11,896 bases of DNA from Candidatus Latescibacterota bacterium (GTDB lineage: Bacteria; Latescibacterota; UBA2968; UBA8231): the NCBI GenBank assembly GCA_965242865.1, contig CBDETK010000002.1, positions 1 through 11,896 of the forward strand, written 5' to 3'. The position numbers were made by a program, and so were the translations under genes. The notes under the pieces are model-generated. The model worked only from the letters and a program-made list of their open reading frames with translations, searched no databases and was not told where the DNA came from. Below, in pieces: positions 1 through 10,971 of the stretch (position 1 is its first letter; every line of letters starts with the position of its first letter).

Positions 1-1
1 G

Positions 2-199
2 GAGCAGCGCAACTTGGCGAATTGGTGCGAGAAGCAATGCGAGTCGGGTGCTCTGACGGTCGATGAGTTGGAGTTCGCGCAGGTGACAAACCTTATCGAC
101 GTGTCAAAGGCGGACCCGATCTTGCGGGGGAGCGCGGACCAGTTCGTCGCGGCCTTGAAGAAGGAGATCGACAAGAAAAAGGACGATCTGCCTTATTAG
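2..199 (+). CDS. 3' end of a phage protein truncated by the window edge; ends in DDLPY, like SSB/annealing-protein acidic tails
   Basis: Frame is open from position 2 to TAG at 197-199. The C-terminus KKKDDLPY resembles the DDIPF/DDLPF motif. Confidence 0.6.
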   Translation, partial: EQRNLANWCEKQCESGALTVDELEFAQVTNLIDVSKADPILRGSADQFVAALKKEIDKKKDDLPY

Positions 200-210
200 T
201 GTTGTACCCT

Positions 211-317
211 GCATCTCTCACGGGGTGAGTTGGGAGTGGATTGAAATACGGGGTGAGCTTGGGAGTGGATTCCCGTAGTATTTCTCAGCCAAGCGGCTGG
301 CCAGAGTGGATTGAAAC
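211..317 (+). CRISPR. CRISPR-like repeat locus 1 without regular spacers: repeat A (211-247), partial A copy (248-271), repeat B variant (278-317)
   Basis: GCATCTCTCACGGGGTGAGTTGGGAGTGGATTGAAAT, then ACGGGGTGAGCTTGGGAGTGGATT, then GTATTTCTCAGCCAAGCGGCTGGCCAGAGTGGATTGAAAC. The full units are hairpins followed by TGGATTGAAA(C/T). The RBS of the next gene follows directly. Confidence 0.75.
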
Positions 318-330
318 AAGGGAGGCTATC

Positions 331-1326
331 ATGGCCCGAAAGCAACGAAAGCAACATCGGTATGACATAGGCGCGGGGGGTGCGGCGGATGGGGCGACCT
401 TGCGTGCTCGTTGGAAGCTCGGCAGCATCACGGCGGCTATTCGTCAGGCGTTGGCGCGGTCGGTGGCGGACGACCCTCCGGTGGCGGATGTAGCGGCGCT
501 GGTGGCGGACGTAGAGTCGGCCAAAGAGGTTTTGTGGCGCGCGGTGCCCCCCGTGGGGCATGGGCGCGAGGCCCTCCTGCTGGCAGACCATTGTCGTATT
601 GCCGTCGCGGATCTGGTCGATTACAAACGTCGGCTCCAGGCTATTTCGAATTCGTATGCGAAGTTGGAGGCGGATCGCGACGGGTACAAGCGGTCGCTTG
701 CGGAGTGCGCTTCGGAGCGCGATGGGATGCAGGAGACCGTGCTCACCCTCCGGGCGGAGCGCGATGCGTTGCAGGAGGATGTGGCAACCCTTAGGGATCG
801 GATACGCGAGATGGAGGAGGTGCATCATAATACGGTGGAAGCGCAAACGGCGTTGCGGCGGGAGGCGCTGGCGACTCTCGTTGAGGCGGGGTTGTGCGAC
901 CGTGATACGATGCCGCTGCAGGCGGGTGTCAACCAAGCCAGAGACCGGTTCCACAGGGTGCGCGAGGATGTCAAAGCGCTGGAGGCCCATATAGACGCCT
1001 TGAAAGCGCGGGAGAAAGAGCGCAACGACCACTTCGAAAAGTCCCAGCGGGAGGCGGTGCAGGCTCTCGTAGAGGCGGGGTTGTGCGATGAGTGGAAGGC
1101 TGTCGATACGCTGAGCGCCAAAATAGCCCAAGCGGTGGAAAATTATCAGTGGTCTGTTACGAATTGGGGGCGTCTCCAGGACGACCGCGACCGTATCAAG
1201 CGACAGGCCGAACGGGACGTAGAAAGCGCCCGGGTGCGTTGGATGATGTGGACGTGTCTGTCCTTTGCGGCGGGCGCGTCGTTGGCGGTGCTGGCTCTGG
1301 TGGCGTTCGGGGGCTTTTGGCAGTAA
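331..1326 (+). CDS. Hypothetical coiled-coil protein with a C-terminal transmembrane anchor (331 aa)
   Basis: RBS AGGGAGG at 319-325 precedes ATG at 331; the track's TTG at 241 lies inside the repeats. Long E/R/A/L-rich heptad region, duplicated RE(A)xxxLVEAGLCD motif, hydrophobic tail WMMWTCLSFAAGASLAVLALVAFGGFW. Confidence 0.8.
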   Translation: MARKQRKQHRYDIGAGGAADGATLRARWKLGSITAAIRQALARSVADDPPVADVAALVADVESAKEVLWRAVPPVGHGREALLLADHCRIAVADLVDYKRRLQAISNSYAKLEADRDGYKRSLAECASERDGMQETVLTLRAERDALQEDVATLRDRIREMEEVHHNTVEAQTALRREALATLVEAGLCDRDTMPLQAGVNQARDRFHRVREDVKALEAHIDALKAREKERNDHFEKSQREAVQALVEAGLCDEWKAVDTLSAKIAQAVENYQWSVTNWGRLQDDRDRIKRQAERDVESARVRWMMWTCLSFAAGASLAVLALVAFGGFWQ

Positions 1327-1331
1327 AAACA

Positions 1332-1436
1332 GGGCGCGGCTTGGTGTGGGAACCGTTCCCAATCAGCGCGGCGTTTCGTCTCTCTAAAGGAGCCGGATTA
1401 TCCGCGTCGCGGTCTAAAGGTCACCGGGCCGCGCCC
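1332..1436 (+). other. Structured intergenic element (candidate cis-regulatory RNA or ncRNA)
   Basis: GGGCGCGGCTTGGTG (1332-1346) pairs with CACCGGGCCGCGCCC (1422-1436) over 15 bp with 2 G-U pairs. It encloses palindromes at 1347-1361, 1394-1404 and 1402-1412, and TCTAAAGG twice. Confidence 0.5.
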
Positions 1437-1457
1437 ACTAACCGAAGGAGAGGAATC

Positions 1458-1970
1458 ATGTTGTTGGATGAAAAGCAGTTGGAGGATTTGAAGCAGGAAC
1501 AAGCGGAGCACGAGGCGGAGCTGGCTCCGGTACGGGAACGGTTGCTCGAAGCCCGTGCGGAGTTGGCGGAGGCGTCGGAGGGGATCCGCACCCGTCGGGA
1601 CATGGAGCCGCGCCGTGCGGCGTTACCCTTTTTGTGTCGGCGCAACGAGTTGGAGTTGGAGTATGACCGCGTGAAAGCCCAGTTGGATCGGGTGGCCGTG
1701 AAGATCGATCTGGGCAGTAACCCGCATTTGTTCCCTCTCAGGCCGGACGAACCGGAACATTATATGCTCGTTTGGGAGACGACCCTCCACGAGCAGGTGT
1801 GGGTGCGGCGCGATGCGCCTATCGACGATCTGCCGCCCACGGTCCGCGAGAGTTTCCGAAATCGGCTATTAGATGAGGAGCAGAAACGCGAGGCGGCGGA
1901 GGGCCGCCCCACCTACCAGGCTACGAACTACTGGGCCGGCGAGGAGGAGGATGACGAAGATGAAGACTAA
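1458..1970 (+). CDS. Hypothetical acidic protein with N-terminal coiled coil (170 aa)
   Basis: RBS GAAGGAGAGG precedes ATG at 1458; the track's start at 1092 overlaps the upstream gene. Ends in the acidic tail EEEDDEDED. Confidence 0.8.
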   Translation: MLLDEKQLEDLKQEQAEHEAELAPVRERLLEARAELAEASEGIRTRRDMEPRRAALPFLCRRNELELEYDRVKAQLDRVAVKIDLGSNPHLFPLRPDEPEHYMLVWETTLHEQVWVRRDAPIDDLPPTVRESFRNRLLDEEQKREAAEGRPTYQATNYWAGEEEDDEDED

Positions 1971-2331
1971 GACCGAACAACCGTTCGCGCCTATGCGTAA
2001 GGGGCAGGTCATTGCGGTGGCTCGGGTCTGGTGGGACGAGGCGGAGGTGGTCTGGGGGTTTACGCTCGCCCGGGTGGTGCGTACCAATCGCGAGGGGTTT
2101 GTGACGCACTTCGTCTTGAGCACGCGGGACGGGTTCCCCGATGCAACGCCGCGCAAGGCGACCCAAGGCAACACGCTGGGCATTACCGCGTGTTATGATA
2201 TTGGGTGGGGCGCTCAGTCGGTGGGCGACCGCTTAGCGGGCGTCGTCTGGCCCAATCTCAAGGCGGCGCGGAAGGCGATCCGTGCGGCGTATGACGACCT
2301 GCCCCCACCGGAAAAAGGAGACCTAGCATGA
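1960..2331 (+). CDS. Hypothetical phage protein (~123 aa)
   Basis: GAGGAGGAGG at 1941-1950 precedes ATG at 1960 (alternative ATG at 1951). Overlaps the upstream stop, typical of translational coupling. Confidence 0.75.
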   Translation: MKTKTEQPFAPMRKGQVIAVARVWWDEAEVVWGFTLARVVRTNREGFVTHFVLSTRDGFPDATPRKATQGNTLGITACYDIGWGAQSVGDRLAGVVWPNLKAARKAIRAAYDDLPPPEKGDLA

Positions 2332-2402
2332 CCGAGCGCCGTAGCGTAGTAGCCTGTATCTCCCGCGGGCTGAGTCGGGAGTGGATTGAAACCGATGAGT
2401 AA
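2328..2402 (+). CDS. 24-aa micro-ORF (MTERRSVVACISRGLSREWIETDE) reading through repeat locus 2; leader peptide or gene remnant
   Basis: RBS AAAGGAG at 2314-2320, ATGA overlap with the upstream stop, and TAA at 2400-2402 just after the start of the HTH gene (ATGAGTAA). Confidence 0.4.
   Translation: MTERRSVVACISRGLSREWIETDE
2356..2392 (+). CRISPR. Solitary CRISPR-like repeat A (locus 2)
   Basis: GTATCTCCCGCGGGCTGAGTCGGGAGTGGATTGAAAC: 37 nt, perfect 6-bp stem CTCCCG/CGGGAG followed by TGGATTGAAAC. Confidence 0.8.
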
Positions 2403-2859
2403 GCCTACGCGCGGTCGGTCCCGCAGCCCCGTGTCCCGCGGCGAGCATGATGACCAGATACGGGCGTTGTATGAACGTGGCTACACCCACGCTGAGATCG
2501 CGGAGCGGGTTTGTTCAAACCGTACGACGGTCAGCTATCGGATCAAGGCGTTGGAGCTTACGCGGCCGGCGGGACCTCCCCGTCGGCCGCGCATCATCAC
2601 GAGGCGCGGGAAGTTGAAGTCTGGGGCCTACGACAAGGCCGCCTATGACCCACACAAACGCCTCGCGGCGGATATATTGGCTCCCTTGTGTGAGGTTGCG
2701 AAATACGAACCAGACAGCAACGAGGGACGTCTGGCGCGCACCCAACTGCGTTGGGCGATGGGTACTATCGAGTTGAACATCATTGGAGCGTGCATTACAA
2801 TACTGGATGTGGAGCGGCAAGTCGCTGAGTTACTAGACCCTGTATCTCCCGCGGGGTGA
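2395..2859 (+). CDS. Helix-turn-helix DNA-binding protein (154 aa)
   Basis: Motif DDQIRALYERGYTHAEIAERVCSNRTTVSYRIKAL. ATG lies 2 nt after repeat locus 2, and the last codons and stop lie inside repeat locus 3. Confidence 0.8.
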   Translation: MSKPTRGRSRSPVSRGEHDDQIRALYERGYTHAEIAERVCSNRTTVSYRIKALELTRPAGPPRRPRIITRRGKLKSGAYDKAAYDPHKRLAADILAPLCEVAKYEPDSNEGRLARTQLRWAMGTIELNIIGACITILDVERQVAELLDPVSPAG

Positions 2860-2952
2860 AATGGGAGTGGATTGAGTCGTATTTCTCTCTGATTTTTGGA
2901 GAGTGGATTGAAACTGTATAACGCTACTGGATGTGGAGCGGCAAGTCGCTGA
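2791..2952 (+). repeat. Direct repeat flanking repeat locus 3: identical 28-mer at 2801-2828 and 2925-2952 within ~38-45 nt of homology
   Basis: TACTGGATGTGGAGCGGCAAGTCGCTGA occurs twice, preceded by TGCATTACAA (2791-2800) and TGTATAACGC (2915-2924) respectively. Confidence 0.95.
2842..2914 (+). CRISPR. Spacer-less tandem CRISPR-like repeats A (2842-2878) + B (2879-2914), locus 3
   Basis: GTATCTCCCGCGGGGTGAAATGGGAGTGGATTGAGTC immediately followed by GTATTTCTCTCTGATTTTTGGAGAGTGGATTGAAAC. Confidence 0.8.
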
Positions 2953-2974
2953 AATTTTAACGAAGGAGGAGTAG

Positions 2975-3181
2975 ATGAACAAACCACTCAAACGAATGCT
3001 CGATCAGCACACCGCACGGGTTGGTGAGGCTATTCAGTCCCTCGAGGATAAGCTCGCCCAAGCCAAGGGGGCGGCCATGCGGTTAGAGCTCGAAAACGAA
3101 ACGCTACGCGAGAACAACAAACGGCTGACACAGCAACTTGAGGCGGCCCGACGCTACGGGCTAATGGCAGCCGATGAATAA
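2975..3181 (+). CDS. Small coiled-coil hypothetical protein (68 aa)
   Basis: Strong RBS GAAGGAGGAG; heptad pattern IQSLEDKLAQ...LELENETLRENNKRLTQQLE. Confidence 0.8.
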   Translation: MNKPLKRMLDQHTARVGEAIQSLEDKLAQAKGAAMRLELENETLRENNKRLTQQLEAARRYGLMAADE

Positions 3182-3509
3182 TCCGCACGTGTGGGTGCAA
3201 CATTACGACGGCATGGCCGGTCGTTTTTTCAAGCAATACGCCCACGGGCTATGCGCCCTGGTATCCCCGAAAGACCATGTTCACCGCGGGAAGAAAGGGC
3301 GGACGTGGTTTGCGCGTATCAGCCACGGGGCGGGGGGGGCGGTGCCCTATCGACGGGACCCCGATTCCAGTTGCGATGTCATATACCAATCGGGCTTTGA
3401 CACGCCGGAAGCGGCGATGTTGTGGGCGGATAATCAAGTAGCAGCGATCGACAACCTAATAACCAACCAACAACCCAACGGAGGAAGTGAAGATGAACGA
3501 GCAACATGA
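3174..3509 (+). CDS. Hypothetical phage protein (111 aa)
   Basis: 8-nt overlap (ATGAATAA) with the upstream gene. Contains a WFARI...GFDTPEAAMLWAD pattern of the kind seen in small phage accessory proteins. Confidence 0.75.
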   Translation: MNNPHVWVQHYDGMAGRFFKQYAHGLCALVSPKDHVHRGKKGRTWFARISHGAGGAVPYRRDPDSSCDVIYQSGFDTPEAAMLWADNQVAAIDNLITNQQPNGGSEDERAT

Positions 3510-3663
3510 AGCGATGCAGCAAGCGCAGGACGATGCCAAGATCGAGGCGACCCAAGAGGGCGTCCGCATGCAGAACGCGCACGGCGGCGAGCTGGTGATC
3601 AACGAAGGGCTGGTGATGTACCGAAAAGTGCTTTGGGCGTTGCCCGAGCGCAAGACGCCGTAG
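3493..3663 (+). CDS. Small hypothetical protein (56 aa, MNEQHEAMQQ...LPERKTP), not in the supplied ORF track
   Basis: GGAGG at 3480-3484, ATG at 3493, open frame to TAG at 3661-3663. Fills the gap before repeat locus 4. Confidence 0.7.
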   Translation: MNEQHEAMQQAQDDAKIEATQEGVRMQNAHGGELVINEGLVMYRKVLWALPERKTP

Positions 3664-3682
3664 CGTAGTAGCGTAGGACCCT

Positions 3683-3755
3683 GTATCTCCCGCGGGGTGA
3701 GTTGGGAGTGGATTGAGTAGTATTTCTCTCCAAATTTTGGAGAGTGGATTGAAAT
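3683..3755 (+). CRISPR. Spacer-less tandem CRISPR-like repeats A (3683-3719) + B (3720-3755), locus 4
   Basis: GTATCTCCCGCGGGGTGAGTTGGGAGTGGATTGAGTA immediately followed by GTATTTCTCTCCAAATTTTGGAGAGTGGATTGAAAT, whose stem CTCTCCAA/TTGGAGAG is a perfect 8 bp. Confidence 0.8.
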
Positions 3756-3812
3756 TGGAACAAGACGTGCTGGCGCGTGCCCTGCGGCGGCTATCGGATT
3801 GAACCCTCACCC

Positions 3813-3853
3813 CAACGCCCCTGTATCGCCTTCTGAGCGACGCAGGGGCGTTG
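3813..3853. terminator. Strong hairpin between convergent transcription units (possible terminator or RNA 3' stabiliser)
   Basis: CAACGCCCCTG (3813-3823) pairs with CAGGGGCGTTG (3843-3853), with an inner TCGC/GCGA stem. No U-tract on either strand. Confidence 0.45.
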
Positions 3854-3908
3854 CTATGCTATGACACCAGTGGGCGTCCCCCAGCGCGACACGGGGCATC
3901 CGGGGCGC

Positions 3909-6900
3909 TCAATCGACCACTTGGAACGTGATCGGCATATAGATTGTTTCTGTGCCGTCCGACGCAATCAGCACCGCCGGCCGTGGGTATAGGTCGGCGG
4001 TGCTTTGTGCGTTGGCCGACAACTGGAACACGTTGCGCGCTAATGTGCTGCTACGGGCTATTTGCACCGGGCAGCCCGTCGTGTACGCAAAGCGTAGCGT
4101 GTAGGTGATCGTACGCCCCGCCACCGTGCTGGCATACGAGAAGTCCGCATTGGCGGTCTGTCGTTGCGTCCCGCGCGTCCCCTCATTGAACACCACAAAG
4201 TTGCGCGTCCCTTTCTTGATGGGATAGAAGGTCTGCGCGGGGATGCCCGAGGCGTTCGGTAGCTCATACGCCCACGTCAGGTTATTGGCGGCGGCCGACG
4301 CGCCCCCCACAAACGTCTTGAGGGTGCTTAGCTTGACGAAGCGGTTGGGGTCGCCACTGGTGCTCTCATCGCTGACGACCATGCGGTCATCATCGTGCAG
4401 GGTCGTTAGCTCGGTGGTGACATCATCGTGTAGGTCGAACGCAAGCCGGCTTTTTATTTGGGCGAAGGTTACATAGCGGTTCGGGTCACCGGGTATAAGT
4501 TCTGCACTCACCACAAACCTATCATCATTTTGTGGTGAGTGCCCTATGGTAACGTCGTCATGCAGGTCAAACAGGGACCCTATCTGATACTTATACAGCC
4601 TAAGCGGCCTTGCGGTGACGTCGGTATGGCTGGCCGCAATGAACAGGTTGCGGCTGCTGTCGGTCGCCAGATAGACCACACGCTCCGCCGAGCCGCTCGA
4701 CGCGCCAATGGTCAAGCTAAGGCTTAGGTCGTCACTAACCAGACCATTATGTCTTCCATCGGTGGTCAAGTTGCCGCCGTAGAACCATTTGAGTTCGGCG
4801 CGCTCGCCGCCCAAGTCAATCGCAAAGATAGACGTAGCATAATCGGTGGGTAGGTTCATGTTGGCATCTACATACCGACGACGCCCCAACGTCGAGGAAA
4901 CGATTGAACTGCGGCTTGACACCAGCTTCAACCCGCCCGGCGCATCGGTCGAGAACGTGGGGGTGAGGAACGTTCTAAGTGTAGCCAAGGTGGCATAGCG
5001 GTTGGGGTCGCCACTGGCCGACTCGTCGCTCACCAACAGCCTATCGTCATCATGCAGCGCGGCGATAGCCGTTGTTACATCGTCATGCAGGTCAAACGAG
5101 CCGCCGCCACTGCTGCCTATGAACGTCTTGAGGGTTGCCAGCGTGACGTATCGGTTCGGATCGCCTGACACCGACTCATCGCTAACCAGCATCCGATCGC
5201 TCTCGTTCAGTGACGAGATAGCCGTTGTTACATCGTCATGCAGGTCAAACGAACCGCCGCCGCCCGTGCTTAGGCCCGCCGTAATGAAGGTCTTGAGGCT
5301 TGCCAGCGTGACGTAGCGGTTGGGATCGCCGCTGGCCGACTCGTCGCTAACCAACATCCTATCGTCGTTATGCAGGGACGGAATGACTGTGGTAACGTCA
5401 TCGTGCAGATCAAAATCGCCGCCGCCACTACTTAACCCAGCCGTGAAGAACGTCTTGAGGGTGCTGAGGGTGACGTAGCGGTTCGGATCGCCGCTGGCCG
5501 ACTCGTCGCTCACCACCATGCGGTCGTCGTTGTGCAAGGCGGTCAGTTGCGTCGTAACGTCCTCGTGCAGGTCAAAGGCGACGTAGTTTTTAAGGGTTGA
5601 AGCAGTAATGTACACATTGGTATGATCATGAATGTTGCCAAGAAGGAACCTGTCCGTGGCTATCACCGACGATTTGGCGTTTGTGACATCGGAAAACAAT
5701 ACAAAGCCCCCGCGATCAAGCCCCTCGGTGATAAAGGTCTTGAGGAGTCCCAAGGTAATGTATCGGTTGGGATCATTCGTCAATGATTCGTCGCTAACGA
5801 TCATCCGGTCGTTGTTGTGCAGGGATGCGATAGCCGTGGGGACATCCGTATGCACTCTGAAGTCATCGGTAACAGGCAGGTCTTGCCATGTACTGCCATC
5901 CCAATACTCAAGCCCCGAAGGACTGGCATTGTTATACCGTACTTCCCCTTGGCTGCCTATATCGGGTTCGCGGATGGTGACTCGAATGATCTGACTGATC
6001 GTCTCTGTTCCACTCTGAGCAACCCACGTGAACGAACTGATCGTCTCAAGCACCGGCAAGCGCCCTACCACCGCAACGGCCCGCACGGTGGTGTTGACCG
6101 AGAGATAGGACGGCACCCCTTCGGCGCGATAGGCCACGGCCGCCGCCTCGGTGGTCGTGGCCGCCGGCAGTATAGGGGCCGCCGGTTGGAGCACCGCCGT
6201 CCCCACATCGCCCGTAAGAGCGGTCACGCCGCTCTCATCCCATGTAAGCGTAGGCGGAGCCGCCCCCGCAGCAATGCCTTCCGGTATCTGAAAGAGCGAT
6301 ATGTCGTTGACATGATGCGTGAACGTGCTGCGGAACATAAGCGTATTACTCGAGGAACGAGCAATCACCTTCTCGTTGACCAATAAGGCTCCTACTGTCG
6401 TGTCCGCAGCGTATTCATAATCGGTGTTTGCTCTTTCAACCAGGCTGCGTAGCGTCTCTGCACGAACAAAGAAACTGCCGCTCGTCCTATATAGAAGCCG
6501 GTAGTAGAGCAAGCACAATCCACTGGCGGGCAGGGCAATGCCCGTGTCCATCCAACCGGCAGCGTTCGGATCGCCGCCCGAGAGACTACGGTTTCTAAAA
6601 GGCTGCCCTATGCGCGTGATGCTGTTGACATCATTCTGCTCAAGCGTAAGCGAATAAACACGCAACGTTCCCGTGTTAGAAGCCGTGAAACGATCTACGT
6701 CATTGACTATGCGGAACAACAACTGGTTCGACTCAGATCGTGTTAGTTCAATCCATGTGGTGGTACTATATGGGGCTGTGTAATAGAGGTATTGTGCCGC
6801 CGTCGGCCGGCCGCCTCTGCTGGGAGGGAACAGGCGCAATAACGAAGGAGAAAAGACTATGTATCGACCGCTCCAATCATCGACATGTAACAACAACCAC

Positions 6901-9869
6901 CCCGCGGTCGGTAGGGTTATGCCTGTGTTGTAATAATAGGCACTGCCTCGGGCGGCCAGCGTGTAATCGCTGCCCACTTTAGTTATGCCTGAGTCGCCTG
7001 TACCGGGAAACGCGAGACGATAGACGGTAAAGGTGCTATTGAATAAGCGACTAAAATCGGCATCATTAACGGCATCTATCAACAGTTCATGGGTTGCCGA
7101 TTTTGATAGTGTCACAAAAAAATCGCCGGCTGAGACTGCGGTTGTTCCGGTCGTCCCCATCTCGGAACGCATCTCAGCCGCATTAAACAGGTAGCTTGGC
7201 CCTTTTGCGAACTGAAAGAATAGCCAGCCCGTCTCGGGGATGGTAAAGCCGGTGGCCCATTGCGTGGAGCCTGAATAGGTGAACGAATACGTATCGCCTA
7301 TCTGCTCTATCGAATAGTCTGTTGGCAGCCGGTCAATGTTTAAGGTGATCACCTGCGAGATGACTTCGCTGCCGCTGGTCGCCTGCCATACAAAAGAGGC
7401 CGGCCCCATAGGGGCATTACCCGTAGCGGTAACAGCCCGTGTAGCGACGTTAATGCTAAGCCATGACGGGGCATCCACCGCCGCATACACAATAGCCTCC
7501 CCGTCGCCCTGCGTAGCCGACGGCAGCACCGGCGCGGTCGGGTCTAAGGTCTGTGTGCCCTGTGTAACCCGAATACTATAGGCGTCGTCGTTGTCCCATG
7601 TCAGCTTAGACGTAACAGCCGTAACATCCGCCGGCGTTGTAACCTCCACCGTGCTCGCCGGCACGGAGCCGGTCACGAGCGTCCCCGTGGGCAGCCACCA
7701 CGCGGCCCTGATGCGTATCTTCGTCTCGGCGGGTAGGGTGTCGAGAAGAATGTCGTCGCCCACGTCAACGCTCTCGCGCCGCCCTAAGCGCGTATAGGTC
7801 TCGACCGCGCCGGGCAACGGAGCGGTCGTAAGGCTACCCCACTCCAACGAGACCTGCGGAAAGACGGCGTTGGTTATGTTAACCGTCACGCGGTCGTGCA
7901 ACAGGTCCTTCGTGGTGATCGTGGGGGGGGCGGTCGCCTGCTCGGGCAACGGCGTCGTGTCGATCTCGCCTAACGCCGTCGAGGCACCAAACAACGTATC
8001 GGGATCCTCGCGCAGATAGGCTTGAAGCGTAAGCTCTTTCGTTACATTCGTCCTAACCACCCGGAACCGCTCGCCCGCGATCCCTTGCTGCGGATCCGTG
8101 AGGGTGACATAATCCCCGGGGCGCACCGTGAGAAGCGCCAGGTTATCGCGGGGGCGTAAGACGTACGTGCTGCCCCTAAAGAGGCGCAGGTGGCGTAGGG
8201 CCAGCGCGGTAAGGCGTTGCGCGGTGTGGGCATTAGAAACCAACGAGACATCGGGCAGCCGCTTTTTTAGGCGCACGTTGCCATCATCGGTCAGCGCATC
8301 GCTATTCGTCAGTTGGATGTCGTAGGGCTGATAGTTCGCTTGGGCGGCCTGCTCGACCTTACAGGCAACCACGTTGATACGCTCCTCCACCGGGGGGGCG
8401 ACATAAAACGGATTGCTCTGAACAATATCATCCGCGGTGAGCACTCGTGCGCCCGACGGGTAGGCGCGCCCCGGCTCGTAATACACCTTGTCGCCATGCT
8501 CGACGACCGCGCCCTGCCACGCAAAGTCTAACTCCTCCTCCACCGCCCGCGGGTCATCGCTATACTGCACCAGACCCGACACCGGGTATTGAATCGTGCG
8601 CGGCACCAACGCCACCGTGACCGTGCCACCAATCTGCTGAATAATCTTTTGGTGGTCCGCCGCCGAGATCGTCCACGAGGCATAGCCCGTGTGCCAGGTG
8701 GGGTCGGTCTGCCCCGACAGGTCCGCCCGCCGCAACGTACTCGTCGGACGGCCCTCGCCGTCTATGTCATCGGGATGCAGCCAGACCACACCCCCATTCG
8801 CCAGCGTGATTTTTACGGAAACGCTATGCGTCCGCAGCCAATTCCCGATAGGTTGGGTCAGCGTGACGGTATTCGCGGTCTGCGTGGCCGCCTCCACGTT
8901 GACCCGGGCGGTATGCACCGCCCCCGTAGCACTTATCTCTATGTTCGTCAGCAGATGGCCCGACGAAAATGTGCGTTGCGCGTCCGTGCCCGCGGGCGCA
9001 AAGGTGCGCGCAGGCCCCGCCCCCGTCACCGCGCAACTCACCGACAGCACGTCCGCAAACTCGACCGACCGCGCGCATTCGGCTACTGCCGACGTGAACG
9101 CGGTGCTATCCAACGACGCATCCTCATCGCCAAACACGCGCTTGCGGTAGTCGTAGCGGACCACTGCCGCATTTTCGGAAAACGTGGGCGTCGTTTGTCC
9201 CGGCCAAGTCGTTTTGAGACCGCGCACGAGAAAACGGATGTTCGGTACAGAATCCTCGTTCTGCCAATAGCGTATCGTGCGGAACGATTGACCTGCTAAA
9301 ATGCGCTCAGACCGGGCGCTGGTCAGTTTGACATGAACCCAGCTCCAATTTTCCATACGATGGCTGCGCGACCAACCGCCCTTAGCCCACAGGCTGGCAC
9401 CCTGATTGCCGTCCGCCGCGAAGTACTCGCGCAACTCAATCCCGCCATTGAAGTCCAGTATATCCGTTTCACAGGTCAGCCTATCGCCAGTCTCGCCCGT
9501 GGGCGGATCATGGCGGGTGAGCACCGCCGGGCGGTCGTTGATATAGAGACCCTCAATCGCCTCCATCGCGCCGCGACCCAACACATAAGCCAAATGCAAA
9601 TCCACCGGGTTCGCTGGGTCTTGCCAAGCAAAGACCAAGTGCCCCGGAACGTTTGCCCGACCATAGACCAAGCGCGGCGTCAATGGGCCGCTACTGGGTA
9701 CCTGTAATTCGCGCTGTATGCGCTCGTCGTGCGCGGGGTTGCGGTTCAGCAGATAGCCTACCGCACCCAAGCCCAGCGCCGCGGTGACGCCCCAGGGACC
9801 GGAAAGCTGCCACGCCGCCAGTTCACCGCCGACGCTCGTAGCCAGTTTTAAGAAATTTCTGTCGGCCAT
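3909..9869 (-). CDS. Phage tail tip / host-specificity (gpJ-like) protein fused to a repetitive tail fibre/adhesin (1986 aa)
   Basis: N-terminal motifs typical of tail tip proteins (PRLVYGRANVPG, GAMEAIEGLYIND, PNIRFLVRGLK, TFSENAA). Thr/Ser/Gly-rich beta composition, duplicated Ig-like segments, 8 fibre-type repeats, and position after the minor tail genes. Confidence 0.85.
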   Translation of the reverse strand: MADRNFLKLATSVGGELAAWQLSGPWGVTAALGLGAVGYLLNRNPAHDERIQRELQVPSSGPLTPRLVYGRANVPGHLVFAWQDPANPVDLHLAYVLGRGAMEAIEGLYINDRPAVLTRHDPPTGETGDRLTCETDILDFNGGIELREYFAADGNQGASLWAKGGWSRSHRMENWSWVHVKLTSARSERILAGQSFRTIRYWQNEDSVPNIRFLVRGLKTTWPGQTTPTFSENAAVVRYDYRKRVFGDEDASLDSTAFTSAVAECARSVEFADVLSVSCAVTGAGPARTFAPAGTDAQRTFSSGHLLTNIEISATGAVHTARVNVEAATQTANTVTLTQPIGNWLRTHSVSVKITLANGGVVWLHPDDIDGEGRPTSTLRRADLSGQTDPTWHTGYASWTISAADHQKIIQQIGGTVTVALVPRTIQYPVSGLVQYSDDPRAVEEELDFAWQGAVVEHGDKVYYEPGRAYPSGARVLTADDIVQSNPFYVAPPVEERINVVACKVEQAAQANYQPYDIQLTNSDALTDDGNVRLKKRLPDVSLVSNAHTAQRLTALALRHLRLFRGSTYVLRPRDNLALLTVRPGDYVTLTDPQQGIAGERFRVVRTNVTKELTLQAYLREDPDTLFGASTALGEIDTTPLPEQATAPPTITTKDLLHDRVTVNITNAVFPQVSLEWGSLTTAPLPGAVETYTRLGRRESVDVGDDILLDTLPAETKIRIRAAWWLPTGTLVTGSVPASTVEVTTPADVTAVTSKLTWDNDDAYSIRVTQGTQTLDPTAPVLPSATQGDGEAIVYAAVDAPSWLSINVATRAVTATGNAPMGPASFVWQATSGSEVISQVITLNIDRLPTDYSIEQIGDTYSFTYSGSTQWATGFTIPETGWLFFQFAKGPSYLFNAAEMRSEMGTTGTTAVSAGDFFVTLSKSATHELLIDAVNDADFSRLFNSTFTVYRLAFPGTGDSGITKVGSDYTLAARGSAYYYNTGITLPTAGWLLLHVDDWSGRYIVFSPSLLRLFPPSRGGRPTAAQYLYYTAPYSTTTWIELTRSESNQLLFRIVNDVDRFTASNTGTLRVYSLTLEQNDVNSITRIGQPFRNRSLSGGDPNAAGWMDTGIALPASGLCLLYYRLLYRTSGSFFVRAETLRSLVERANTDYEYAADTTVGALLVNEKVIARSSSNTLMFRSTFTHHVNDISLFQIPEGIAAGAAPPTLTWDESGVTALTGDVGTAVLQPAAPILPAATTTEAAAVAYRAEGVPSYLSVNTTVRAVAVVGRLPVLETISSFTWVAQSGTETISQIIRVTIREPDIGSQGEVRYNNASPSGLEYWDGSTWQDLPVTDDFRVHTDVPTAIASLHNNDRMIVSDESLTNDPNRYITLGLLKTFITEGLDRGGFVLFSDVTNAKSSVIATDRFLLGNIHDHTNVYITASTLKNYVAFDLHEDVTTQLTALHNDDRMVVSDESASGDPNRYVTLSTLKTFFTAGLSSGGGDFDLHDDVTTVIPSLHNDDRMLVSDESASGDPNRYVTLASLKTFITAGLSTGGGGSFDLHDDVTTAISSLNESDRMLVSDESVSGDPNRYVTLATLKTFIGSSGGGSFDLHDDVTTAIAALHDDDRLLVSDESASGDPNRYATLATLRTFLTPTFSTDAPGGLKLVSSRSSIVSSTLGRRRYVDANMNLPTDYATSIFAIDLGGERAELKWFYGGNLTTDGRHNGLVSDDLSLSLTIGASSGSAERVVYLATDSSRNLFIAASHTDVTARPLRLYKYQIGSLFDLHDDVTIGHSPQNDDRFVVSAELIPGDPNRYVTFAQIKSRLAFDLHDDVTTELTTLHDDDRMVVSDESTSGDPNRFVKLSTLKTFVGGASAAANNLTWAYELPNASGIPAQTFYPIKKGTRNFVVFNEGTRGTQRQTANADFSYASTVAGRTITYTLRFAYTTGCPVQIARSSTLARNVFQLSANAQSTADLYPRPAVLIASDGTETIYMPITFQVVD
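4311..5864 (-). repeat. Eight intragenic ~45-50 aa repeats FDLHDDVTTxxxxLHxDDRMxVSDESxSGDPNRYVTLxTLKTF (six, then an insert, then two)
   Basis: Directly visible in the translation and as recurring plus-strand DNA motifs such as tcgtgcaggtcaaa and cggttgggatcgcc. One copy is degenerate. Confidence 0.9.
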
Positions 9870-9874
9870 TGAAG

Positions 9875-10381
9875 TTATCCTGTGGCCCGCGCCAGCGGCC
9901 AGTCAAATTTCTTTTCGCTCACTTCATACATGAAGTCTAATCCAATATCGGGGTCGCCCACGCGCTCATTTTCGCGTTGTCGTTCGGGCGTCCAAACGGC
10001 GTCCGGTTTCAACAAGTTGAACTTGCGCTTGGAGACTTCCAACAACCATTCACCGGCCTTATCAACGGTGCTCTGTCCTGCCGTCCCCGTGAAGCGATAG
10101 CCCGTATCGGCCCATGCGCCGCCGTCCTCCCGCGAGAGAAGATAAACCGACACGGCCGCCGGCCCCAGGTCTTCCGGTAGGGTCTGCCGTTGGGCGTCCG
10201 AGAGGGCGATAGCCACCGCCAACGACGGCTCCGTCCCCGCCTCCAGCGTGTGCTGCGGGAAACGGACGTCGAGCAGCCGCCCCCCACCGCGATACACCTC
10301 GCTCTCAAACGTAATGTCGTCGGGGAACGTCGCCAAGCGCAACGTCGTTCCGATCTTCAAGAGAATAGCCGCGAACTGCAT
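9875..10381 (-). CDS. Minor tail protein (hub/DUF2163-like by position and motifs)
   Basis: GAGGAGG lies 7 nt before the ATG at 10381 (TGATG overlap). Motifs DITFESEVYRGGGRLL and WTPERQ...GDPDIGLDF; lies between the distal-tail-like gene and the tail tip gene. Confidence 0.7.
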   Translation of the reverse strand: MQFAAILLKIGTTLRLATFPDDITFESEVYRGGGRLLDVRFPQHTLEAGTEPSLAVAIALSDAQRQTLPEDLGPAAVSVYLLSREDGGAWADTGYRFTGTAGQSTVDKAGEWLLEVSKRKFNLLKPDAVWTPERQRENERVGDPDIGLDFMYEVSEKKFDWPLARATG

Positions 10382-10971
10382 CACACCGCCTCCTCAAAGG
10401 GGATGACCCACGGCCCCCACCGGGTCGCGGTGCGCGGTAGGTCTAACGCCCTCGTATCCAAGCGCACGTCCATGGTCGTCGCCGGGGTGATCCCATCGCC
10501 CACTGTTCCGACAAACACCGGCACCGGGTTCACTTGCGTCGCCGCGGGTTGCGCCCCGTAGGCTTGTAACAAGCGGTCGCCCGCCGAGAAGAACTGGCCG
10601 TCTGCCAACGCAACAGCACGGGAGAGGGTTAGACGCCCGCTCTGAGCATCTATCGCACTAATGGTGACAGACGGCACAGGGTTTTCAATCGTCCACAGAC
10701 CCGCCAACGGGAGCGCCACCGTCAGGTCACCGCCCCGCGTCTTACGCAGGAGCGCCGACAACTGACTGGCCAGCCGGTTCGCCTCGTCCTCCTGCTGATG
10801 GGCAAAGCTCATCCATGTCACCTCGCCCCGCCACGCCCCCGGCGCATAGTAGGCAAAAGACTGTTGACCCGTGTATTCAGAGCGATGCGATTGCAGCCCG
10901 GGTTCCCACGGCAACAACGACACCGCCGTGATGCGGTTCGCCAAATTTTCGGGGATTTGTATGTCGGCCAT
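10381..10971 (-). CDS. Distal tail protein-like minor tail protein (196 aa)
   Basis: Immediately downstream of the tape measure gene with TAATG overlap. SEYTGQQ...GAWRGEVTW motif and C-terminal IPFEEAV resemble such proteins. Confidence 0.7.
   Translation of the reverse strand: MADIQIPENLANRITAVSLLPWEPGLQSHRSEYTGQQSFAYYAPGAWRGEVTWMSFAHQQEDEANRLASQLSALLRKTRGGDLTVALPLAGLWTIENPVPSVTISAIDAQSGRLTLSRAVALADGQFFSAGDRLLQAYGAQPAATQVNPVPVFVGTVGDGITPATTMDVRLDTRALDLPRTATRWGPWVIPFEEAV

Follow-up and report, generated by a model that had tools for sequence, protein, structure and literature searches.

Two unlike mimics of the type I-C CRISPR repeat joined without a spacer on a tailed-phage contig from a Candidatus Latescibacterota assembly: possible RNA decoys

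The stretch of DNA analysed here, called the window, comprises 11,896 nucleotides (nt) and is the whole of contig CBDETK010000002.1 (C2) of the 13-contig, 6.0-Mb assembly GCA_965242865.1 of a Candidatus Latescibacterota bacterium. At two places on its + strand, a 37-nt unit (A) resembling a CRISPR repeat is followed, with zero bases between them, by a different 36-nt unit (B), namely at 2842-2914 (locus 3) and at 3683-3755 (locus 4). From their sequences and predicted pairing, the A-B pairs are two structurally different mimics of the type I-C repeat of the host. We tentatively favour, at a little under even confidence, the view that they are decoys of the RNA anti-CRISPR (Racr) type and that the tandem would release a 36-nt CRISPR RNA (crRNA) devoid of a guide. 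The fused heterotypic pair is a new form within the known class of viral repeat mimics, for which we propose the function below. The repeat-like units of the window are as follows.

211-247, + strand: A1, a solitary A-type I-C repeat mimic ending GAAAT / GGATTGAAAT; 45.1 bits (model R1)
248-277, + strand: A', 30 nt copied from the 3' two-thirds of A, comprising its loop, the 3' stem strand and an altered handle, GGATTCCCGTA
278-317, + strand: B1, B-type flanks GTATTTCTC ... GAGTGGATTGAAAC enclosing a different hairpin; 38.1 bits
2356-2392, + strand: A2, a solitary A-type unit with the canonical handle, ending AAC / GGATTGAAAC; 54 bits
2842-2878, + strand: A3, the 37-nt A unit of the locus-3 tandem, ending GGATTGAGTC, with handle UGGAUUGAGUC; 46.1 bits
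2879-2914, + strand: B3, the 36-nt B unit of the locus-3 tandem; 42.2 bits
3683-3719, + strand: A4, the 37-nt A unit of the locus-4 tandem, ending GGATTGAGTA, with handle UGGAUUGAGUA; 46.7 bits
3720-3755, + strand: B4, the 36-nt B unit of the locus-4 tandem, with a perfect hairpin of 8-9 bp; 40.3 bits

The spacer-less tandems at loci 3 and 4, first pointed out in an earlier note on this DNA, were read directly from the sequence. The change that the note described at the end of A was also present, since the tandem A units end in GTC or GTA, whereas the solitary A2 ends in AAC and A1 in AAT. The same note had placed a GTA-GTATTTCTC junction behind a truncated A in locus 1; it lies at 275-286, where the end of A' runs at once into B1, and locus 1 accordingly holds three units within 107 nt. 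A' lacks the 5' stem strand and matches the A units over 23-24 nt. Together with short flanks, both tandems form an 81-nt direct repeat of 91% identity, and although they differ at 7 of the 81 positions, both retain the zero spacing and the pairing in both stems. Three changes between the stem-loops of B3 and B4 leave 8 bp in B3, two of which are G-U. When one mismatch was allowed, GAGTGGATTGA occurred seven times in the window, always on the + strand, whereas the expected mean was 0.14 and none of 200 shuffled sequences reached seven. The A-B observation is thus confirmed as real and far beyond chance. Contigs of two public runs spanned locus 3 with 0 or 1 difference; these runs may be source data of the assembly and are therefore not counted as independent support. 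Contigs of four DNA runs agreed with the sequence, and A-type units also appeared there in other contexts.

The window belongs to a phage. Contigs C4 (28.4 kb) and C11 (23.4 kb) of the same assembly are 92-98% identical to C2 over the shared parts and encode a tape measure protein, major head protein, portal, large terminase, head protease, tail completion protein and endolysin. Considering these structural and terminase genes together with the identity to C2, we regard C2, C4 and C11 as variant genomes of one tailed phage. None of the three matched the 5.6-Mb chromosome of the assembly (C13). The - strand of the window carries tail genes, and the + strand from 1 to 3663 carries eight small open reading frames (ORFs) without a firm family; the units always lie on the sense strand of the local genes. 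Cas families were matched by 0 of 24 phage ORFs and by none of the ORFs of the window. The description of the units in the earlier note as CRISPR-repeat mimics on a phage is supported. The mimicry, the pattern of conservation, the matching host system and the phage context are all read directly from the DNA.

The chromosome carries an array of 41 identical copies of the 37-nt repeat GTCTCCCCTTGCTTTGGTGAGGGGAGCGGATTGAAAC, with spacers of 34-37 nt. Adjoining it are cas3, cas5c, cas8c, cas7/csd2, cas4 and cas1c, which scored above or close to the NCBIfam cut-offs of the type I-C models. A second chromosomal locus encodes type III-A and III-D proteins and has another 37-nt repeat, which has only its last eight bases in common with the I-C repeat. 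The alignment scores of A and B were 9-14 to the I-C repeat and 2-9 to the type III repeat. The proposal that A and B imitate two different host arrays or systems was therefore not borne out: the host has one I-C and one type III repeat, and both units are I-C-like, being closer to the former than to the latter. One unit of C4 is identical to the host I-C repeat at 36 of 37 positions. The fifth host I-C spacer from the leader (near 3525492-3525526) reads, on the other strand, AGAGTGGATTGAAAC followed by a T-rich flank. Here AGAGTGGATTGAAAC equals the 3' end of a B-type unit, with its U handle and AGAG stem end, and not the host repeat; it seems that the host took this spacer from a repeat-mimic locus of an element outside this assembly. 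When the host I-C and type III spacers were compared with C2, C4 and C11, there was no match of at least 24 nt.

Some further observations were made on the repeat-like sequences of the chromosome. Between cas4 and cas1, at C13:3527387-3527423 (- strand), a degenerate repeat is preceded by a leader-like stretch, which is similar to the final ~30 nt of the array's leader. Directly behind the repeat come AGGGAGA and a second handle, CGGATTGAAAC. Host cas1 probably starts at a UUG within this second handle, and the element may be a crRNA-like regulatory element or processing site of the host. The fourth type III spacer (C13:4796777) matches at least 17 chromosomal sites at 33-39 of 40 positions, each followed by TAGGGC, and is a self-matching spacer against a dispersed host repeat. 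A hairpin repeat, TGGATTCCCGC...GCGGGAATGAC, has far more than 100 scattered copies on C13, often with a conserved left flank of about 40 nt, and looks like a repetitive extragenic palindrome (REP) or a miniature inverted-repeat transposable element (MITE). The word TGGATTCCCG, common to A' and the host, was dropped as part of an abundant host hairpin repeat.

To compare the units, 13 distinct ones were aligned, anchored on the handle and paired inward: the host repeat, the host-like C4 unit, five A units, the C and D types of C4 and C11, and four B units. They have a common architecture: a 2-6 nt tail that starts with G[U/C] leads into a stem, whose distal part varies together with the loop, and the handle UGGAUUGA closes the unit. 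The first stem pairs are C-G in 12 of 13 units, U-A in 13 of 13 and C-G in 12 of 13, and in all 13 the stem ends in ...AG directly before [U/C]GGAUUGA. Two exceptions apart, the handle reads UGGAUUGAAA followed by C or U: that of the host repeat begins with C, and the two tandem A types also deviate. The C-G/U-A/C-G stem base and the handle are kept in A, in B and in the three other unit types of the phage, whereas loops and 5' tails vary and the stems carry compensatory changes. For the nine A, C and D units, which align without gaps, the stem was paired in 92.1% of cells, compared with 43-62% when the pairing was slid, and in three of the seven stem pairs both partners change. When the 13 units were made into a covariance model and the whole 6.0-Mb assembly was searched with it, 63 matches were obtained, of which 41 were the host array repeats, 20 lay on the phage contigs (7 on C2, 10 on C4 and 3 on C11), and two were others, namely the degenerate repeat in the host cas operon and one weak match elsewhere. 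By Rfam, only A2 was matched in the window, as CRISPR-DR9 with 28.8 bits, which is below the gathering score of 45.

This pattern fits the recognition by Cas5c reported in PMC8524198. There, Cas5c enzymes cut at the stem's 3' base and recognise the cut site, the stem base and the downstream U-G-G, while changes of the loop and 5' overhang are tolerated and not recognised. All 13 units have the corresponding hairpin with [U/C]GGAUUGA directly behind it, in keeping with the 11-nt 3' part beginning U-G-G of such substrates. If the cut sites described in that source apply, Cas5c would cut locus 3 at 2867/2868 (A3) and 2903/2904 (B3), and the predicted released RNAs would be 2868-2903 at locus 3 and 3709-3744 at locus 4. 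Each is 36 nt long, 11 nt coming from the handle and 25 nt from the part of B that reaches its stem base, so the arithmetic of the roughly 36-nt product expected in the earlier note is right under that cut. The three altered handle bases of the tandem A units are those farthest from the cut site. They also give short complementarity to the B handle, to which we attach little weight because the register differs between the two loci.

A second helix is possible in part of the units. In the A, C and D units, pairing is possible between the 5' flank, A[C/G]CC[C/U]G, and the loop, GGG[G/C]U. This flank-loop helix was paired in 92.6% of cells, compared with 20-52% when the pairing was slid; at one of its pairs, five units have GC, three have CG and one has UG. 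In the window, this pairing is found at 206-239, 2351-2384, 2837-2870 and 3678-3711. In the C, D, B and host-like units, the CRISPR-like hairpin is stronger than the flank-loop helix. Both helices might form by turns, or at the same time in an H-type pseudoknot, with a putative geometry of 3-, 0- and 4-nt loops. Such a pairing can be evolved only by a repeat with a fixed flank. Since it comes from few independent lineages, we treat it as a lead and not as a result.

Comparison with the sister contigs revealed both conservation and rearrangement. C4 retains locus 4, GTA junction included, A4 being found at 5512-5548 with two changes and B4 at 5549-5584 without any; conservation of the junction, on which the earlier note had made its proposal depend, therefore holds in the one sister contig that has the locus. 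Locus 2 is identical in C4. Locus 3 is absent there: nothing in C4 corresponds to C2 2829-2924, and on either side of this insertion stands one copy of the last part of ORF 2395-2859, as a 38-nt direct repeat. At locus 1, C4 has A1 and the central B1 hairpin and lacks the B flanks. On the - strand of C4, at 27026-27143, there is a 76-nt tandem duplication of a gene 3' end (about 40 nt) together with a D unit, of which C11 has one copy (16189-16230); an extra 9-nt GATTGAAAC, a duplication of the handle, follows it on C4. The repeat loci are the main sites of structural change between otherwise near-identical genomes.

In addition, C4 carries a mini-CRISPR array at 12365-12543, between two tail genes, where C2 has no array and C11 has a small gene. 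It begins with a C-type repeat, continues with a 35-nt spacer, a host-like repeat and a 34-nt spacer, and ends in a truncated repeat, behind which lies a terminator-like hairpin. The region 12340-12570 contains a promoter-like TATATT, three repeats of two types and two spacers. Spacer 1 matches a gene in all three phage contigs at 30-31 of 35 positions, with mismatches in the first seven positions and the flank GGA. The features of the window that bear on these comparisons, and one near the end of the operon, are the following.

2791-2828, + strand: 38-nt direct repeat, copy 1, the 3' end of ORF 2395-2859, containing a promoter-like -10 element TACAAT
2915-2952, + strand: 38-nt direct repeat, copy 2, 89% identical to copy 1 and beginning exactly where the B3 handle ends
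3816-3850, + strand: inverted repeat rich in G+C, CGCCCCTG ... CAGGGGCG, between the point where the + strand operon ends and the tail-fibre gene that converges on it
10207-10241, - strand: site of spacer 1 of the C4 mini-array, a 30/35 match with mismatches in the first 7 positions and flank GGA

As to the function of the tandems as Racr-type decoys, we infer that the units are transcribed, cut and bound, and that they inhibit the I-C system. Transcription would take place within the phage + strand operon of small genes, and the host Cas5c would recognise each unit by its stem base and UGG... handle and cut at the 3' base of both stems. The tandem would then yield a 36-nt RNA with a 5' handle and a 3' hairpin and without a guide, which could load Cas5c, and perhaps Cas8c and a Cas7, in a guide-free form. 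These RNAs, together with five to ten other mimics per phage genome, would occupy Cas5c or Cascade subunits in guide-less or aberrant complexes and thereby lower interference, as has been described for Racr RNAs. Since neighbouring identical repeats can be lost by recombination or slippage, a pair of diverged units, instead of the same unit in two copies, would be protected from such loss; this would matter here, as rearrangement of the repeat loci is frequent in this phage family.

A precedent is RacrIC1, which mimics a type I-C repeat and was shown to inhibit interference (Camara-Wilpert et al. 2023, PMC10651486). Like the Racr elements of that report, the A-B units are viral mimics of the sequence and hairpin of a CRISPR repeat, match the subtype of the host, occupy intergenic or operon positions and have no cas genes nearby. 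Two Racr properties are accordingly found here: the units resemble the host-subtype repeat in sequence and structure, and they are encoded on a virus outside CRISPR-cas loci. Unlike Racr, A-B fuses two different units at zero spacing and alters the last three bases of the upstream handle, and the phage has about seven units per 12 kb, of five sequence types. The SRUFinder pipeline, as outlined in PMC10651486, discards repeats with a full or partial repeat within 100 bp; tandems such as A-B were therefore excluded from the Racr survey by design, and only A2, not A-B, is solitary under this rule. The viral solitary repeat units of Faure et al. 2019, as cited in PMC10651486, are lone repeats that often stand just downstream of a predicted promoter. 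Similarly, A1 is preceded by the promoter-like motif TTATTAGTGTTGTACCC, and A1 and the C-type units follow a common TATTAG..GTTG..CCC motif, but most of the present units are not strictly solitary and several lie between or inside genes. Promoter-like sites in the scan numbered 3, compared with 1.4 expected, which is a weak excess.

The units also differ from true arrays. They do not belong to an array with spacers of about 33-37 nt next to cas genes, as the spacing at loci 3 and 4 is zero. Virus-borne mini-CRISPR arrays were reportedly described by Medvedeva and colleagues in 2019 as serving conflicts between viruses. The C4 locus resembles them, with its repeat-spacer-repeat-spacer-repeat order and a spacer matching related phages, whereas A-B has no spacer, and a repeat-spacer-repeat order is found in these phages only at C4 12365-12543.

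Similar junctions were searched for elsewhere. In IMG/VR, the junction pattern gave 54 loci, none of them relevant (a conserved coding gene and scattered matches), and 19 loci had two I-C-type handles 22-42 nt apart, with zero spacing in 0 of 19; five of these 19 were unlike hairpin-handle pairs about 11-20 nt apart, which is the format of crRNA-like regulatory RNAs. The same pattern idea gave at least 117 loci on metagenome contigs, and all 18 that were examined lay inside or at the end of long regular arrays. Two of these (L161 and L163) had true zero spacing between the handle and the next repeat, and in L163 the end of the upstream handle was altered too, as in A-B; unlike A-B, both belong to cellular contigs and sit in long, regular arrays built of a single repeat type. 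No isolated pair of unlike units with zero spacing was found on other viral contigs in the IMG/VR and metagenome scans. No relative with a spacer between A and B was found, the relatives being contigs of the same assembly only. B-type units were absent from the other 167 genomes of the phylum (1 of 168, this assembly), and in 30 other species of the genus (31 genomes) there were 15 loose-handle matches outside this assembly and no A, B or tandem. Two congeners have lone I-C-like repeats with a U handle (G007 C2:4552983 and G028 C54:87168), one of which is followed after 1 nt by an ATG opening an ORF. A scan of a genome collection gave at least 115 loci; among the matches listed, a Leptospiraceae metagenome-assembled genome (MAG) has B-like arrays, Thiothrix MAGs have A/D-like ones, and MAGs of Marinacidobacterales have host-like ones with a U handle. 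By sequence, these repeats appear to form one broad 37-nt I-C repeat class. The idea of a second host was not supported, as the hosts of these arrays are too distant.

Several results weigh against the decoy function. The link between phage and host comes from co-binning and the repeat evidence. Zero-spacer pairs arise as accidents in ordinary arrays, as the two metagenome loci demonstrate, and the mini-array of C4 suggests that the host I-C system is exploited by these phages instead of being disabled. A2 lies within a 24-codon ORF (2328-2402) that overlaps genes on both sides, and one B unit of C4 and C11 (C4 26295-26333, - strand) lies inside a 188-codon ORF; both ORFs read ...EWIET D... 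in the same frame relative to the handle, and cutting of these units would sever the mRNA. In the A units, the CRISPR-like hairpin has -4.6 to -8.2 kcal/mol, compared with -8.3 to -10.4 kcal/mol for the flank-loop hairpin, and whole-locus folding energies are not unusual (z from -1.24 to 0.05). Neither a known anti-CRISPR protein nor a firm Aca-type regulator was identified beside the units, and no public RNA runs covering window positions 150-3900 were found.

The same DNA might be what remains of a collapsed or rearranged mini-array, which is unlikely, though the most probable of the rival readings. A and B would then have been its two repeats, the spacer and last handle bases having been lost by slippage or recombination, and the zero-spacer junction would have no function of its own, while single units may still act as mimics. 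The same phage family does possess a true mini-array (C4 12365-12543), its repeat loci are hot spots of rearrangement in contigs of otherwise 92-98% identity (locus 3, the B1 flanks, and the 76-nt and 9-nt duplications), and all 18 of the examined short- or zero-spacing metagenome loci lie in arrays, L161 and L163 with zero spacers and L163 with its altered handle. However, the GT[A/C]-GTATTTCTC junction recurs in three places of the window, the tandems keep zero spacing and both stems paired despite their 7 differences in 81 positions, no A-spacer-B relative was found, and in IMG/VR none of the 54 junction loci was relevant and none of the 19 two-handle loci had zero spacing. Distinctly unlikely is the delivery of guides against sibling phages, by hijacking or homing. 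Here, the phage sequence behind the B handle would become a crRNA-like guide through that handle; in the phage itself, the copy would be protected by the handle at the place of the protospacer adjacent motif (PAM), siblings without the insertion would be cut, and A would serve as a processing site or insulator. That the second copy of the 38-nt gene end begins exactly at the end of the B3 handle accords with such guides, and so do its match to C4 4728-4765 over 25 identical bases with differences in the first 10, the 32/35 match of the 35 nt after B1 to C4, which has no B flanks and there has the flank CTC, and the match of the C4 mini-array spacer to the phage family. TTC is the usual PAM in other I-C systems, from which it is taken, and not from the present host. 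None of the four examined sibling sites has a TTC flank (GCG, CTC, GTC and GGA), three of the four are mismatched within the first 10 positions, no downstream repeat sets the 3' end, and neither the A unit nor the zero spacing is given a role. The flanks of imperfect protospacers on other small contigs are inconsistent, and no host PAM could be derived from them. An outside chance, improbable in our view, is an extended form of guide delivery: A-B and the gene-end copy would be a protein-free selfish element that has the host I-C machinery make a guide from the sequence behind the B handle, is itself shielded by the handle in place of the PAM, and spreads by recombinational repair among siblings that lack it and are cut, the A-B RNA being a by-product or insulator and A a pseudoknotted mimic that could evolve only in a solitary repeat with fixed flanks.

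Falling between guide delivery and this extended form in probability, and likewise doubtful, is a role in cis, in which the units would mark points of processing, stability or translation in a polycistronic mRNA, with or without Cas5c, any effect on immunity being secondary. The units do stand in short gaps before ribosome-binding sites or start codons, B1 13 nt before ATG 331 and A2 2 nt before ATG 2395, as do the D and C units on C4 and C11. The 3' stem strand (GGGAG, GGAGAG) is Shine-Dalgarno-like, the UUG of the handle is in frame with ORF 2395, the second flank-loop helix of the A, C and D units offers an alternative fold or pseudoknot, and the start of host cas1 lies within a repeat-like element. 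A generic hairpin, however, would not need the exact I-C handle that is kept in 20 units, the four loci in the 3.7-kb operon do not mark every gene boundary, and the covariation comes from few independent lineages. Very improbable is a viral crRNA-like RNA of the Cracr type, with degenerate repeats flanking a pseudo-spacer that would direct Cascade to repress host cas genes or a guard toxin. In Liu et al. (10.1101/2024.10.29.618823), the short pseudo-spacers of Cracr arrays pair with promoters of host cas or toxin genes; typical of these phage arrays, as of A-B, are stacked repeats that are degenerate and not identical, and nine I-C two-spacer arrays are reported. The five IMG/VR pairs of I-C-like units with spacers of about 11-20 nt, and the 30 nt between A1 and B1, might be read in this way. 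Unlike Cracr, A-B has no pseudo-spacer, its spacing being zero; the 30 nt at locus 1 repeat part of A, and no such promoter match was found in the host. Of 19 pseudo-spacers, TTC plus the first 9 nt matched three chromosomal sites, none in cas loci and at chance level, and words in common with the I-C and type III loci were 9-12 nt long, again at chance level. We therefore disfavoured this reading, as only such matches were found where at least nine PAM-proximal matches to a cas or toxin promoter are expected.

Other features of the window are briefly described here. The inverted repeat at 3816-3850 is a possible terminator, although a terminator scan made no call there because the loop is too long. 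ORF 2395-2859 gave sub-threshold helix-turn-helix matches only, and relatives of ORF 2395-2832 were absent from IMG/VR. For ORF 10381-10971, IMG/VR gave one weak match with 39% identity over 56 residues, and among 76 host-family genomes only this assembly itself matched; the phage relatives found are solely the 92-98% identical contigs of the same assembly. On the - strand, 3909-9869 is a tail-fibre-like ORF of 1986 codons with five to six internal repeats (about 150-165 nt, 60-77% identical), and it is the part most diverged between C2 and C4.

Should the tandem be no more than a collapsed array, it is a commonplace by-product of unstable repeats. If it is cut as predicted, the product would be the smallest possible crRNA, a handle and a hairpin without a guide, and this 36-nt RNA would be a clean tool to find which Cascade subunits load without a spacer. 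Because the Racr survey dropped repeats with a neighbour within 100 bp, fused spacer-less pairs are a blind spot of such surveys. As one small system brings together units that look like decoys, a genuine mini-array and a host spacer directed at a mimic, this phage family may be a good place to study how phages both exploit and blunt type I-C immunity.

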